Shown: piece by piece, positions 22,944 through 41,557 of the stretch
Layout of the letters: every line of letters begins with the position of its first letter
Position numbering within the stretch: the stretch's first letter is position 1
Program-made: the position numbers and the translations under genes
NCBI GenBank assembly: GCA_963845185.1
Contig: CAWJRG010000010.1
Coordinates: 64,001 to 128,000 of the forward strand
DNA from: an uncultured bacterium
GTDB lineage: Bacteria; Oederibacteriota; PGYV01; CAWJRG01
DNA: 64,000 nucleotides
Direction of reading: 5' to 3'
The notes under the pieces: model-generated
Told to the model about the DNA's origin: nothing
What the model saw: the letters and a program-made list of their open reading frames with translations, nothing else
Database searches by the model: none

Positions 22944-24221
22944 ATGCACGATATCAAGGTATTGAGGGAAACTCCCGATAAAATTAAAGAAGGCATTTCC
23001 AAAAAAGGTGTAAACACCAAAATAGTGGACGAGGCCCTCGAAATAGATGGAAAAAGGCGCGTAGTACTTCAGGAAGTGGAGAAACTAAAAGCAGAAAACA
23101 ACAAGGTTTCGGGCGACATAGCAAAAATGAAAAGAGAAGGCAAAGATACAGCCGGCATAATTGCTTCAATGAAAAAAGTGACGGATAAAATAAAAGAACT
23201 GGATGAGGAACTGGCAAAAATAGAGGAAGAGTTTAATAAAAAGATGGTCTGGATACCGAATATTCCCCATAGTGACGTCCCTGTTGGAAAAGACGAGACA
23301 TCAAACGTAATAGTCTCTCAATGGGGTGAAAAAGCCAATTTCGGCTTTAAACCCAAACCACACTGGGAAATAGCCGAATACCTCGATATTCTCGACTCCG
23401 CGCGCGCGGCAAAAATAACAGGTGCCAGATTCACTCTCTATAAGGGAGCAGGCGCTTTGCTTGAACGCGCGCTTATCAATTTTATGCTCGATGTCCATAC
23501 AAGGGAGCACAATTATACCGAAATAATTCCCCCGATACTCGTCAACAGGGATTCCATGCTCGGCACTGCACAGCTTCCTAAGCTTGAGCCTGATATGTTC
23601 AAAGTCGTAGAGCCTGATTATTTTTTAATTCCGACTGCCGAGGTTCCGGTCACAAGCATACACAAGGATGAAATATTAAAGGAAAAAGACCTGCCAGTAT
23701 ATTACACGGCCTATACCCCGTGTTTCAGGAAGGAAGCAGGCTCTTACGGCAAGGATATGAAAGGCATAGTAAGGATGCACCAGTTTAATAAAGTCGAACT
23801 GGTAAAACTCGTACATCCCGATGCTTCTTATAACGAACTGGAGAAACTTCTCAAGGATGCATGTGTTATCCCGCAAAGGCTCGGCCTCCATTATAGGGTT
23901 GCGGCTCTTTCAACAGGCGACCTGAGCTTTGCGTCCGCAAAAACTTATGATATAGAAATATGGCATCCGGGCGGTGAAAGGTACTGGGAGGTGTCCTCCT
24001 GCTCCAACTTTGAGGATTTCCAGGCGCGGCGCTTAAAAATCAGGTTTAAGGACAGGGAAAACAAGGTGAGGTTTGTGCATACTTTAAATGGCTCAGGCCT
24101 TGCGACTTCACGACTGCTTCCCGCAATACTTGAAGTATATCAGACCGAAAATATGGAAGTTATTATCCCTGAAGTTCTCAGGCCTTACATGGCCGGAATT
24201 GACAAAATCAAGAAAAAATAG
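22944..24221 (+). CDS. serS: Serine--tRNA ligase
   Basis: N-terminal coiled coil, LIPTAEVP, FRKEAG, HQFNKVE, EVSSCSN and HTLNGSGLA motifs. Confidence 0.98.
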   Translation: MHDIKVLRETPDKIKEGISKKGVNTKIVDEALEIDGKRRVVLQEVEKLKAENNKVSGDIAKMKREGKDTAGIIASMKKVTDKIKELDEELAKIEEEFNKKMVWIPNIPHSDVPVGKDETSNVIVSQWGEKANFGFKPKPHWEIAEYLDILDSARAAKITGARFTLYKGAGALLERALINFMLDVHTREHNYTEIIPPILVNRDSMLGTAQLPKLEPDMFKVVEPDYFLIPTAEVPVTSIHKDEILKEKDLPVYYTAYTPCFRKEAGSYGKDMKGIVRMHQFNKVELVKLVHPDASYNELEKLLKDACVIPQRLGLHYRVAALSTGDLSFASAKTYDIEIWHPGGERYWEVSSCSNFEDFQARRLKIRFKDRENKVRFVHTLNGSGLATSRLLPAILEVYQTENMEVIIPEVLRPYMAGIDKIKKK

Positions 24222-24270: not shown

Positions 24271-24498
24271 ATGGAAGAAAATAAGCCGGTAGAAAACCAG
24301 CCAAAAGCCGCTGCAGGCAAAAACAAAAACGGCCTTTATGTCATAGGCATTGCCATAGCTATTCTTGTGCTGGGATACTACATACTTACAAAGGTAAACG
24401 CAGACGCGTCAAACTGGGCAGGGGCCGTGTCGCCTATCCTTATAATAGGCGGGTATATACTTGTCGCTGTCGGCATCCTGATAGGCTGGGACGAATAA
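24271..24498 (+). CDS. Small two-TM membrane protein, DUF3098-like
   Basis: GGAGG RBS before ATG 24271, two hydrophobic helices with LGYYIL...SPILIIGGY. Confidence 0.75.
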   Translation: MEENKPVENQPKAAAGKNKNGLYVIGIAIAILVLGYYILTKVNADASNWAGAVSPILIIGGYILVAVGILIGWDE

Positions 24499-24581
24499 AG
24501 CATTTCTGATTTCAAATTTCAGATTGCAGATTTTAAACTTTAAATCTAAAATTTAAAAATATGAATTTTGAAATTATTTAA

Positions 24582-24668
24582 GGAGGGCTAGTCCTAATTG
24601 GTAAGGCGTCTGACTTGAAATCAGATGGGCGCAAGCCCTTGGGGGTTCGAGTCCCTCGCCCTCCGCCA
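24582..24668 (+). tRNA. tRNA-Ser(UGA)
   Basis: Acceptor GGAGGGC/GCCCTCC, anticodon arm TCTGA-CTTGAAA-TCAGA, long variable arm, GGTTCGAGTCC, G73 and encoded CCA. Confidence 0.96.
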
Positions 24669-24717
24669 AGATTACCAATAATACCGTTGATGTAAAATTT
24701 GTTCATTGTGATCCGAT

Positions 24718-24852
24718 AGCGGAAAGGACTCGAAGCGAGTGAGCGCCGAGCGATTAGCGAGGAATAGCCGATTAGGCGTCAGCGAACGAGGGGGTCGACG
24801 AGCGAAACGCTGGAGCGTTTCGTAAGGTGACCGAGTCCCTCGCCCTCCGCCA
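24718..24852 (+). repeat. tRNA-linked structured repeat ending in a 21-bp copy of the tRNA-Ser(UGA) 3' end
   Basis: CGAGTCCCTCGCCCTCCGCCA at 24648-24668 and 24832-24852; GGACTCG near 24726 can pair with the repeated CGAGTCC. Confidence 0.8.
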
Positions 24853-25021
24853 TGATTTTCAGCTTCGCTGAAAATCCGAGAACCGAGAATAGATAATTGA
24901 AAATAGAACAAGGTAGCAACGGCTTAATCTAATTATAAATAAATGCACACAGTCGATTCTCAATTTTCAATTTTCAGATTTTATTATCCCATAGTATAGT
25001 TTTTTAACATATTTTCCTCGC

Positions 25022-25236
25022 GGAGAGATGGCCGAGTGGACGATGGCAGCTGCCTGCCAAGCAGTTGATCCGGATAACTGGTTCGAGGGCTTCGGCCTGC
25101 GGCCGAAGACAAGGCTCACGCCGAGCGATTAGCGAGGAAAAGCAAAGCGTATAATCATTGCCGCTTTGCGCAAGTGAGCCGAGGCGAGACTACGCAGCAC
25201 GCTTCCAGCGGGCGGAGTAGTCGAATCCCCATCGCC
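25022..25236 (+). pseudogene. Disrupted copy of tRNA-Ser(GCU), anticodon changed to GCC, with a ~130-nt structured insertion at the T-loop
   Basis: 25022-25089 is nearly identical to the 5' part of 25296-25387. TCGAATCCC resumes at 25221 and the acceptor 3' strand is degenerate. Confidence 0.82.
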
Positions 25237-25295
25237 AAGGGCGATGAAATGCAACTTTGAAATAATAAAGAGCGTTATAATATTTATCTTCCTGC

Positions 25296-25387
25296 GGAGA
25301 GATGGCCGAGTGGACGATGGCAGCTGCCTGCTAAGCAGTTGATCTGGGCAACCGGGTCCGAGGGTTCGAATCCCTCTCTCTCCGCCA
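25296..25387 (+). tRNA. tRNA-Ser(GCU)
   Basis: Acceptor GGAGAGA/TCTCTCC, anticodon arm GCTGC-CTGCTAA-GCAGT, long variable arm, GAGGGTTCGAATCCCTC, GCCA end. Confidence 0.96.
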
Positions 25388-25427
25388 TTTTATTATATAA
25401 AAATGGATTCGCCCTCCGCCACAATAA

Positions 25428-26795
25428 TTACCTCTTTGTCATCTCCGCCATCAATTCCACATGATAAGTTTGCGCGAACTGGTCAAGCGGGATAATTTCA
25501 TTTAATTTATATACCCCTTTCAACGATGAAAGATCCCTGGCATAGCTTGCTGGATTGCAGGATATATATATAAGTTTTCCTGCCGGTTTTTTACTGAGCG
25601 CGTTTACTACTCTTTGGTTCATGCCCGAACGCGGCGGATCAACAACGACAGCGTCGAATTTTTCGTCTTCCAGTAATTTTTCAGCCGCGTCCTCAACCCT
25701 TGAGTTTACTATTGATATATTTCTTATATTATTATGTTTGGCTATATCGTACAGGATTGCCGTACTTGTCTTTTCCGCCTCTACTATAGTTACTTCCCTG
25801 AATTTGCCTGCAGACGGCAGGGTCAGCGCGCCAACCCCTCCGTACAGGTCAAGTACCGACGATCCGCTTCCTGCTTTTTTGAAAACAAACGCAACCATTT
25901 TCTCCAGCATGCCCGCGTTCACCTGGAAAAAAGTCTGCGCCTCTAGCTTGAAATTAACGCCTGCCGCGCTTTCGATAAGATACGGTTTGCCAAAAATCAC
26001 CTTTTCCCTTTCTCCGTAAACATTGCTTGTGTCTTCAAGGTTAAAATTTGCAACTATGCCGTATATACCATCGCACTGCGCCTTTATCCTTTCCGCAGCC
26101 GTTTCAATAAATGATTTCACTTCTTTTCCTGCAACAACAAAAGTTACAAGCGCTTTCCCTTGAGTATTTACCCGCATCGTAACATGCCGCAGATAACCCC
26201 TGCGCTTATCCTGATTGTATATAGTAAGTCCTTTTGTATTTTCGTTCAAAACTTTACGGGTTATCTCGGCTATTTCGTTTATGCGCGGGTGCATGAGCAG
26301 GCATTTGTCAACGCCTGCTATTTCATGGCTACGCGCCTTAAAAAAACCGAGTTCCACTCCTCTTTGTGTCAGGACAGGCCTGTACTCTGCCCGGTTCCGG
26401 TAATTCAAAGGGATTTCGTACGATACAGGCGCAAGTATCGGGGGGTTTTTTATGCCGCCTGTTTTTTCTATCATTTCACGCATTATCCGTACTTTATGTT
26501 CGAGCTGGTATTTGTAAGGCATATTCATCCAGTCACACCCGCCGCAGATTCCAAAATATGGGCATGCCGGTTTTGAATAATACGGTGATTGTTTGATGAT
26601 GCTTTTTACCCGTGCCTTTGCTATGTCGTTTTTAGACTCTATTACCACGGCATTGACAATACTGCCCAGCAACACATAAGGTATATAAATGGAATACCCT
26701 TCAAAGTATGCTATTCCATCCCCGCCGTAAGCCAGCGAGGAAATCTCAAGTTCCAGTTCTTCTCCTATTTCAAGTTTATTTATATTGCGTTTCAC
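25428..26795 (-). CDS. rlmD: 23S rRNA (uracil-C5)-methyltransferase, TRAM domain
   Basis: CPYFGICGGC Fe-S motif, YRNR, FFQVN, DLYGGVG, VDPPRSG, YISCNP and HVE motifs. Confidence 0.93.
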   Translation of the reverse strand: MKRNINKLEIGEELELEISSLAYGGDGIAYFEGYSIYIPYVLLGSIVNAVVIESKNDIAKARVKSIIKQSPYYSKPACPYFGICGGCDWMNMPYKYQLEHKVRIMREMIEKTGGIKNPPILAPVSYEIPLNYRNRAEYRPVLTQRGVELGFFKARSHEIAGVDKCLLMHPRINEIAEITRKVLNENTKGLTIYNQDKRRGYLRHVTMRVNTQGKALVTFVVAGKEVKSFIETAAERIKAQCDGIYGIVANFNLEDTSNVYGEREKVIFGKPYLIESAAGVNFKLEAQTFFQVNAGMLEKMVAFVFKKAGSGSSVLDLYGGVGALTLPSAGKFREVTIVEAEKTSTAILYDIAKHNNIRNISIVNSRVEDAAEKLLEDEKFDAVVVDPPRSGMNQRVVNALSKKPAGKLIYISCNPASYARDLSSLKGVYKLNEIIPLDQFAQTYHVELMAEMTKR

Positions 26796-41376: not shown

Positions 41377-41557
41377 AAATCCCTGCTGTGCCCGTGTAGA
41401 AGCAAACGTTTTGGCCCAACACTTTTTTGAACGGGAGCTGGGCTTATATGTGGTGTGCATGCCTCATAACGAGGAAGCCTAAAACATATAACAAGGCACC
41501 CACCTGTTTGGAAAGGGCCCAAAATAATGCTTCCCACGGCACTTGGCGGGGTTATTT
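41377..41557 (+). ncRNA. ssrS: 6S RNA
   Basis: About 180-nt rod: CCCTGCTGTGCCCGTG pairs with CACGGCACTTGGCGGGG, TTTTGGCCC with GGGCCCAAAA, central bubble with CCAACAC and CACCCACCTG. Located upstream of rny, a known 6S context. Confidence 0.85.

Follow-up and report, generated by a model that had tools for sequence, protein, structure and literature searches.

A decayed tRNA-Ser copy whose T-loop probably holds one copy of a widespread tRNA-linked RNA element

In a 64,000-nucleotide (nt) stretch of DNA from an uncultured bacterium (contig CAWJRG010000010.1, positions 64,001 to 128,000 of the forward strand; this whole stretch is the window, in whose numbering positions are given), a partial duplicate of tRNA-Ser(GCU) at 25022-25248 is interrupted in its T-loop, between tRNA positions 55 and 56. 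The first 68 nt of the locus copy the 5′ part of tRNA-Ser(GCU), the next 131 nt form a structured insert, and what follows is a decayed tRNA 3′ end; the insert includes one copy of a ~115-nt GA-rich element, described below, that recurs beside tRNA and tmRNA genes. Aligned with the first 69 nt of the intact tRNA-Ser(GCU) gene (25296-25387), the segment 25022-25089 is identical in 62 of 69 columns, and the differences comprise an anticodon T to C change (CTGCCAA in place of CTGCTAA, turning GCU into GCC), five substitutions and one gap in the variable arm, whose stem has kept its pairing through changes on both sides. The leaders of the two genes are also alike. The T-stem 5′ strand, GAGGG, occupies 25085-25089 and is followed by the 131 nt of hairpins, with TCGAATCCCC starting at 25221. 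The original prediction, made from the sequence alone, had described a tRNA-Ser copy split at the T-loop by a hairpin-rich insert and an altered anticodon loop, both of which were borne out by this alignment. It had also pointed to a 21-mer, CGCCGAGCGATTAGCGAGGAA, which we found, as stated there, at both 25119-25139 and 24744-24764, the latter within a further copy of the element behind the neighbouring tRNA-Ser(UGA). The features of the locus are as follows.

24582-24668, + strand: tRNA-Ser(UGA), intact (ARAGORN; Rfam tRNA model, 50.1 bits)
24723-24852, + strand: standard copy of the element behind tRNA-Ser(UGA) (nhmmer and covariance-model matches)
24723-24732, 24744-24764, 24767-24777 and 24793-24832, + strand: 5′ arm, 21-mer, hairpin P2b and P3 of the Ser(UGA) element
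24832-24852, + strand: exact 21-nt copy of the tRNA 3′ end (C56 to CCA) in the Ser(UGA) element
24854-24876, + strand: AT-rich hairpin after the Ser(UGA) element, probably the native tRNA trailer/terminator (comparison of tRNA trailers)
24995-25000, + strand: -10-like box TATAGT, ending 21 nt upstream of the pseudo-tRNA start (promoter scan)
25022-25089, + strand: pseudo-tRNA-Ser 5′ part, comprising acceptor 5′ strand, D arm, anticodon arm (GCC), variable arm and T-stem 5′ strand
25090-25108, + strand: extra hairpin CTTCGGCC-TGC-GGCCGAAG (similar hairpins in the orthologues of genomes G078 and G093)
25109-25222, + strand: element core within the pseudo-tRNA-Ser (covariance-model match, 75.2 bits)
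25113-25119/25174-25180, 25121-25137, 25142-25169 and 25188-25222: core helices P2, P2a (tandem G.A, in the 21-mer), P2b and P3
25221-25237, + strand: decayed tRNA 3′ end, comprising T-loop 3′ half, T-stem 3′ strand and degenerate acceptor strand
25230-25246, + strand: hairpin CATCGCC-AAG-GGCGATG (fold)
25296-25387, + strand: tRNA-Ser(GCU), intact (ARAGORN; Rfam tRNA model, 57.6 bits)
25405-25421 and 25440-25450 (within 25405-25450), + strand: core-less fragments resembling a tRNA-Ser 3′ end, GGATTCGCCCTCCGCCA and CATCTCCGCCA, possibly remnants of lost copies (sequence inspection)

The pseudo-tRNA-Ser has lost two T-stem pairs and its acceptor 3′ strand, which is degenerate, carries no CCA, and retains only TCGAATCCC of the tRNA 3′-end copy. 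In keeping with the earlier view that the degenerate acceptor strand makes a charged tRNA unlikely, ARAGORN called no tRNA in 25022-25248, with or without its intron option, and the Rfam tRNA model (RF00005) gave the pseudo-tRNA-Ser 18.4 bits, below the 29-bit gathering threshold. When the insert was deleted in silico, ARAGORN called a tRNA-Gly(gcc) in 7 of 90 combinations of boundaries, calls that only mean that the 5′ two-thirds are intact. The suggestion that a functional Ser-tRNA(GCC) would misread Gly codons does not survive, as the anticodon reflects a single substitution in a pseudogene and the scenario does not arise; the GCC triplet is incidental, because the orthologue in genome G093 has GCT and that in G078 has an insert in the anticodon loop. 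An ordinary tRNA-Gly(GCC) gene is present elsewhere in the genome.

The insert itself is strongly folded, with a predicted free energy of -71.9 kcal/mol (z = -3.58; 0 of 200 shuffles as stable), and its minimum-energy fold recovers the same helices as the covariance model. Part of it resembles a second repeat family. The original prediction had noted sequence shared with a repeat associated with Shine-Dalgarno sites, and we found that the 13-mer GGCCGAAGACAAG (25101-25113) occurs at seven sites in the genome, the other six all within that repeat, which adjoins Shine-Dalgarno sites. Since the 13-mer, which the insert carries at its extra 5′ hairpin, and a GGCC-loop-GGCC hairpin are common to both, the insert is composite, which suggests module exchange between its family and the Shine-Dalgarno-site repeat family.

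The same pseudo-tRNA-Ser with an element in its T-loop lies upstream of tRNA-Ser(GCU) in two other genomes of the same taxonomic order, G078 (locus L108) and G093 (locus L112). The G078 orthologue consists of two tandem pseudo-tRNAs with additional inserts in the D arm and anticodon loop, and the G093 orthologue has a D-arm insert and retains the GCT anticodon; in these two genomes, as many as three loops of the pseudo-tRNA-Ser genes (D arm, anticodon loop and T-loop) are thus occupied by structured inserts. That both genomes share the arrangement argues against misassembly, and also indicates that the arrangement is old. Among contigs from other samples (four runs), no piece bridges 25022-25248, and the 20 samples listed as sharing sequence with the region carry at most 0.13 of the sampled words; among RNA runs, none is listed for 24400-25500. 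Two contigs from other samples, of 287 nt (run X1) and 214 nt (run X2), join tRNA-Ser(UGA) to its element. In a contig of run X1, the 3′ end of a tRNA-Ser(GCU) is followed by 39 other letters and then a copy of the element, from which it follows that a related organism has a standard downstream copy at tRNA-Ser(GCU), as does G078.

Searching the 3.5-Mb genome with the 21-mer at up to three mismatches gave nine occurrences, versus none for the reversed control, which exceeds chance. The counter-case, a simple decayed duplication in which 21-mer and insert occur nowhere else, is contradicted, both being widespread. Iterated nhmmer and a covariance model (R1) each found the identical 17 copies of the element, a GA-rich three-way junction. 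All 17 lie on the same strand as, and 21-200 nt from, one of the genome's 46 tRNA genes or its tmRNA gene. The sites are tmRNA (two copies, in tandem), Tyr (two), Asn, Asp, Met, Leu(CAG), Arg(ACG), Arg(UCU) and Ser(UGA), together with Ser(GGA) and Gly(UCC), each with a copy before and a copy behind the gene, and single copies before His and before Ser(GCU). Two truncated remnants, behind tRNA-Met (C10:848772) and tRNA-Arg(CCU), exist besides the 17.

By eye, 13 of the 17 copies are standard, standing behind an intact tRNA, and in the other four (Ser(GCU), Ser(GGA), Gly(UCC) and His) a tRNA 5′ part precedes the insert. The pseudo-tRNA form is therefore atypical within its family, whose usual product is a duplicated tRNA 3′ end (C56-A76) behind an intact tRNA. 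Of the proposal that 25022-25248 is the scar of a tRNA-targeting structured element that leaves a duplicated 5′ half, the structured, tRNA-linked family stands, and the 5′-half duplication as its usual mark does not. One of the four, the pseudo-tRNA-Gly(UCC) upstream of tRNA-Gly(UCC) (G000:C1:95629-95890, minus strand), has a ~90-nt insert in its D-loop in addition to the element in its T-loop.

A standard copy opens with an inverted copy of the last 21 nt of the neighbouring tRNA and closes with a direct copy. Among 48 non-redundant pairs, identity between the tRNA and the direct copy starts at C56 in 39 (at 55 in four, 57 in one and 58 in four), and in 27 of 38 pairs the direct copy stops at the tRNA 3′ end, with unrelated sequence beyond; in the remaining 11 the spacer is repeated after the copy, forming a tandem unit. 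The direct repeat is typically 21 nt (range 18-21 nt), tracking the encoded tRNA end. The 5′ arm is the reverse complement of the T-loop 3′ half and T-stem 3′ strand and usually spans 7-10 nt, with 8-10 nt in the majority; a few copies (the own-genome Asn copy, L181 and the G028 Arg copy) have arms of 17-20 nt, which we read as decayed full-length inverted copies. The arms are matched within each copy, the longest arm helix having a median of 8 bp with its own partner versus 5 bp with the arms of other copies. They pair as P1, which resembles an extended T-stem and closes a three-way junction with P2 and P3. After P1, a linker, AAGCGA, leads into P2, which bears the hairpin P2a (CCGAGCG-AnnA-GCGAGG, with tandem G.A) and the variable hairpin P2b; a second linker, CGAGGNGA, separates P2 from P3, which abuts P1 and contains an internal loop rich in purines. 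The conserved hairpin sequence of the element is CCGAGCGAAUAGCGAGG, and its tandem-G.A hairpin, CCGAGCGAnnAGCGAGG, is near-invariant.

This fold is supported by covariation. Our main alignment (A3) held 83 copies from several phyla and was fitted to the model, a procedure that favours the structure; in it 68.0% of cells are paired versus 55.2% in shuffles, both partners have changed in 26 of 31 pairs, and the covariation score is 0.275 versus 0.102 in shuffles, a value reached by 0 of 500 (slid controls, 0.035-0.068). A MAFFT alignment of the 17 own-genome copies gave 0.280 versus 0.139 (slid controls, 0.07-0.11). At two P2 positions where most sequences have G.A or A.G (50 and 48 sequences), about 30 have a Watson-Crick pair instead. 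The sense strand is predicted to fold more stably than the antisense strand in 72 of 78 copies (means, -49.9 versus -44.5 kcal/mol), a comparison that is no more than supportive, the copies being related. Counts of G.U versus A.C by strand on A3 (45 versus 77) were distorted by out-of-register columns.

R1 detected the element, at 1 to 17 copies each, in 26 of 99 genomes from the host phylum and in 20 of the 60 that are at least 90% complete. At 28 fetched loci from the same phylum, 27 of 32 matches lie beside a tRNA on the same strand. Model R1 gave no matches in the seryl-tRNA synthetase neighbourhoods of relatives (11 loci, L027-L037). A broader model, R2, matched 42 of 121 sampled genomes from the phylum of an Omnitrophota-titled genome. 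Applied to a complete Omnitrophota-titled chromosome of 1.4 Mb, R2 gave five copies, and four other genomes yielded 13, 4, 1 and 1. An exact search of a species-representative genome collection for a 25-nt motif, GCGCCGAGCGANNAGCGAGGAAAAG, returned 69 loci. By the titles of their metagenome-assembled genomes (MAGs), 27 are Omnitrophota, 16 Planctomycetes, 8 Deltaproteobacteria, 3 FCPU426 and 2 Firestonebacteria; Nitrospira, Treponema, Spirochaetales, Endomicrobiales and Cyanobacteria have one each, and 8 titles name no taxon. By these record titles, then, the family is placed in Goldbacteria, Omnitrophota, Planctomycetes and other phyla. Among 68 matches in the motif loci, 46 follow a same-strand tRNA and 5 precede one; for 2 the tRNA is on the opposite strand, and for 15 no tRNA was called. 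We inspected 11 loci without a tRNA call, taken from this set and from the same-phylum loci, and found that eight follow a tRNA or tmRNA 3′ end, or a remnant of one, that had escaped ARAGORN (among them a tmRNA end, an interrupted tRNA-Asn and tRNAs truncated where the locus stops); the other three had too little upstream sequence to judge. No exact match to the 25-nt motif was present in a viral collection described as comprising 2.9 million contigs. Upstream of the element in L113, L197 and L143 are tRNA-Asn-like 3′ halves in which more than 100 nt of conserved sequence replace the anticodon loop, GTAACCAC resuming after the insert; ARAGORN misses these genes, and they are possibly tRNA-Asn genes interrupted in the anticodon loop by an intron.

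The architecture of the element recalls the tRNA-linked repeats (TLRs) of Escherichia coli, which the passages of PMC8144298 that describe them (citing Egan & Landy 1978 and Rudd 1999) count as 22 copies at ten loci, of unknown function, each ending in 18-19 nt identical to the 3′ end of the upstream tRNA or rRNA. In K-12 these include RtT/RttR behind tyrT-tyrV and RrA/RrB/RrF behind 5S rRNA; conservation is reported there for RrA/B/F, within Enterobacteriales, and the authors propose that the repeated 3′ end is a processing signal (PMC8144298). Like TLRs, the element stands behind a tRNA in the same orientation (27 of 32 and 51 of 68 matches in other genomes are beside a same-strand tRNA), carries a direct repeat of the 3′ end and forms tandem arrays with a partial last unit, arrays that are frequent among TLRs too. 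The tyrT units consist of GGGGAAGGAT, a GA-rich core and then AATCCTTCCCCCACCACCA, and an inverted 5′ arm can be seen on comparing GGGGAAGGAT with ATCCTTCCCC. The differences from what those passages give are that the direct copy here comprises 21 nt from C56 rather than 18-19 nt, and that the element spans several phyla, whereas TLRs are reported for Enterobacteriales; the pseudo-tRNA-Ser copy also differs in lying upstream of an intact tRNA and not behind it. Core homology to TLRs went undetected with R2, which scored the four tyrT units at just 9.9-10.5 bits, a match confined to the arms and GAAGC. Rfam 15 yielded no family matching the element, whether searched with the window or with 12 diverse loci (cut-offs of E <= 10 or E <= 0.1), and its library presumably includes RtT, whose accession we take to be RF00391. 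A full-text literature search found no such elements outside E. coli; a bioRxiv mobilome preprint mentions rttR, in a passage that is not decisive. TLRs are thus the closest known counterpart of the element and of the same architecture and kind, with core homology undetected, and the cross-phylum family is a separate one that Rfam lacks.

TLRs have been known since 1978 and are still without a function, and here a separate, covarying, cross-phylum family shares their architecture. Its core is near-invariant across phyla, which argues for a real molecular partner or activity and not junk. The many natural variants of the family offer a route to the function of the element and to the origin of the habit of wrapping a core in the neighbour's end. 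There is a practical side as well, in that these elements create pseudo-tRNAs and direct repeats, breaking assemblies and confusing both tRNA annotation and the calling of attachment sites.

Filled and empty sites could be compared in genus g33. In genome G030, tRNA-Glu(UUC) is followed by a 61-nt spacer with a perfect terminator-like hairpin, the element, a 21-nt copy of the tRNA end and then a sequence X, which in G028 and G029 comes directly after tRNA-Glu. The filled site differs from the empty one by a ~164-nt block that has no open reading frame and is bounded exactly by the 21-nt direct repeat. Since recombination between the 21-nt repeats could precisely delete such a block, gain and loss are indistinguishable. 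The spacer at the G030 tRNA-Glu had no other match in G030, G028 or G029. The cores at G030 Glu(TTC) and G028 Arg(TCT) are identical at 94 of 95 positions but have unrelated spacers (36 of 65), and orthologous loci in the genus have flanks of 87-91% identity (the G030 Arg(TCT) locus falls at contig ends). The core is therefore more constrained than its surroundings, in agreement with its near-invariance across phyla, and with constraint this strong core identity is no clock for transfers. The 5′ arm at the G030 Glu site is still Arg-like with one compensating change, a hint that the arms become adapted once a copy has moved. Tandem arrays are common, as are units reduced to their 5′ part (L171, L151, L140, L202, L174 and L188), and the same truncated unit stands alone in L163 and behind a full unit in L151.

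The reverse transcriptase domain RVT_1 is absent from 20 of the 26 carrier genomes, including G078 (14 copies, 95% complete), G090 (11 copies, 99%) and G089 (8 copies, 96%), and reverse transcriptases are not enriched with the element (6 of 26 carriers versus 26 of 73 non-carriers). A resident reverse transcriptase is thus not required for spread, which in our model would proceed at the DNA level. In three cases (own-genome Arg(TCT), L166 and L189) the tRNA gene lacks CCA and the copy has it, which fits either an RNA origin or a distal copy that is the original gene end; in five others (L168, L155, L148, L176 and L184) gene and copy both lack CCA. We also considered tRNA-primed or target-primed reverse transcription, circle integration and ribozyme reverse splicing, none of which covers the target-specific 5′ arm, the unique spacer and the absence of reverse transcriptase together. 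A miniature inverted-repeat transposable element, or another non-autonomous transposon, was rejected as the arms vary by copy with the local tRNA and there are no constant inverted repeats or fixed-length duplications. The genome of the window (G000) itself contains six reverse transcriptase matches, each of 142.1 bits and in frames of 472-566 amino acids (C9:700695, C9:811636, C9:845477, C10:383780, C10:832145 and C11:62007), which appear to be copies of one mobile retroelement, probably a group II intron.

Taken as a whole, 25022-25248 is probably a dead tRNA-Ser(GCU) duplicate with its T-loop filled by one copy of a widespread ~115-nt RNA element of the tRNA-linked-repeat type. Most copies follow an intact tRNA or tmRNA gene at a distance of about 10-200 nt and share its orientation. 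The covariation, the tandem G.A on the sense strand and the strict co-orientation with tRNAs point to a sense-strand RNA. We tentatively suggest, as a joint proposal that is possible but short of our confidence in the identification itself, that the element may be expressed as a small RNA of the sense strand, transcribed either through the upstream tRNA or from a -10 box of its own, and that its tRNA-identical 3′ end and the tRNA's own terminator may let the tRNA 3′-end machinery define the RNA end. A conserved partner would then dock at the near-invariant tandem-G.A hairpin. The spacer is often only 9-25 nt in copies from other phyla, which obliges tRNA and element to be co-transcribed. Of 71 copies, 18 have a -10-like box immediately in front of them (7 of 13 for the own genome), versus 3 of 71 in a far window and a mean of 10.2 in composition-matched shuffles, and the pseudo-tRNA-Ser has retained such a promoter-like box. 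The tRNA-end copy is usually followed by an AT-rich hairpin like that behind element-free tRNA genes; the RNA would therefore end like a tRNA transcript, in agreement with the processing-signal proposal in the TLR passages of PMC8144298.

Several points weigh against this picture. A strong terminator-like hairpin precedes several copies, so that co-transcription with the tRNA is not general, and the enrichment of -10 boxes is modest. Expression, RNA ends and processing are all steps that we infer from sequence. Formation of P1 leaves the acceptor-strand tail single-stranded, and resistance to exonucleases is then not obvious. The further inserts in the orthologues mean that the pseudo-tRNA-Ser copy may be decaying rather than working. 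The core has no detectable homology to the E. coli TLRs by R2 (9.9-10.5 bits, through arms and GAAGC only), and the taxonomic spread depends on MAG titles that may err: L165, titled Cyanobacteria, is nearly identical to L113 of the Goldbacteria phylum and to L197.

The direct repeats invite a comparison with integrating islands and phages, which also leave a repeat of the gene 3′ end from the T-loop and also use tmRNA; T-loop-starting direct repeats of tRNA and tmRNA 3′ ends are reportedly, after Williams in 2002, the classic signature of integration. The repeats might on that account be attachment-site scars, that is, attL/attR remnants of decayed tyrosine-integrase islands or prophages in the T-loop of tRNA genes. 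We consider this improbable, because only about 130-170 nt separate the repeats, the content is small and constant when filled and empty sites are compared, neither integrase nor cargo is found between the repeats, an inverted repeat copy always stands at the start of the element ahead of a small structured core, that core is conserved across phyla with covariation support, and the 25-nt motif has no exact match in viral contigs. Scarcely better placed is a retro-element, in which the direct copy would have been reverse-transcribed from a mature tRNA (by priming or template switching, as in short interspersed elements or strong-stop products) and spread would be RNA-borne. In 27 of 38 pairs the copy does stop where the mature tRNA ends, and three copies (Arg(TCT), L166 and L189) have a CCA that the gene lacks; against this, a distal copy that is the original gene end would account for those three just as well, five CCA-less genes have CCA-less copies, and RVT_1 is missing from 20 of 26 carriers with reverse transcriptases no commoner where the element occurs, past or external enzymes being possible.

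Two further explanations concern the pseudo-tRNA-Ser alone, and we give both very little credence. It could be a working tRNA with a T-loop intron, spliced, charged with serine and reading Gly codons. Archaeal tRNA introns occur at non-canonical positions including the T-loop, and split and permuted tRNA genes also exist; these introns are spliced at a bulge-helix-bulge by the archaeal/eukaryal endonuclease and yield working tRNAs. The T-loop insert is a likeness, as are the intact D, anticodon and variable arms, the variable-arm pairing kept through two-sided changes and the tRNA-Gly(gcc) calls in 7 of 90 in silico excisions. The host here is bacterial, however, the acceptor 3′ strand, two T-stem pairs and CCA are gone, the orthologues have extra inserts in the D arm and anticodon loop, and most family members have no tRNA 5′ part; we know of no bacterial splicing system for T-loop inserts. 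A plain decayed tandem duplication or an assembly artefact would agree with the failure of any contig from the independent samples (four runs) to bridge 25022-25248, but not with the 17 family copies here, the hundreds elsewhere and the same arrangement in G078 and G093. A somewhat larger, though still small, share of our belief goes to a folding switch acting in cis, in which the 5′ arm would pair either with the 3′ half of the upstream tRNA, blocking its folding, or with the element's own copy (P1), the core, perhaps through some sensing function, deciding whether the tRNA matures. With identical partner sequences, both pairings are unavoidable in co-transcribed copies with 9-25-nt spacers, and the core is strongly constrained; many copies, on the other hand, lie behind terminator-like hairpins or second in tandem arrays, and no ligand or partner is known. 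Equally speculative is the broader idea of a riboswitch-like device for tRNA quality control or regulation, whose 5′ arm might compete with the acceptor and T-arm pairing for the tRNA 3′ half, and whose GA-rich junction, on binding a protein or small molecule, might set whether that arm rests on the decoy copy (P1) or keeps the upstream tRNA or tmRNA from maturing. If true, it would mean control of individual tRNAs and tmRNA across phyla and would supply a testable function for the E. coli TLRs.

A few neighbouring features complete the description of the window. Directly upstream of both tRNA-Ser genes lies the gene for seryl-tRNA synthetase (22944-24221), and the encoded protein is 70-73% identical to those of MAGs titled Goldiibacteriota or FCPU426, so that the host is Goldbacteria-like. 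Trailers homologous to the hairpin at 24854-24876 follow the element-free tRNA-Gly(ccc), Arg(ccg) and Val(tac) of the own genome. This hairpin belongs to a second repeat family behind tRNAs, an AT-rich hairpin of the form tgattttNNNN...aaaatc, seen at 24854-24930 and at Gly(ccc), Arg(ccg), Val(tac) and Tyr. At tRNA-Gly(ccc), at tRNA-Arg(ccg) and behind the Ser(UGA) element, ccgagaaNcgagaatagataa comes after the AT-rich hairpin, and the equivalent of this trailer repeat in genus g33 carries ggcagagcaactgaaaacagaaaaatga. Further downstream, at 41377-41556, the window contains a 6S RNA gene (Rfam, 111.4 bits).

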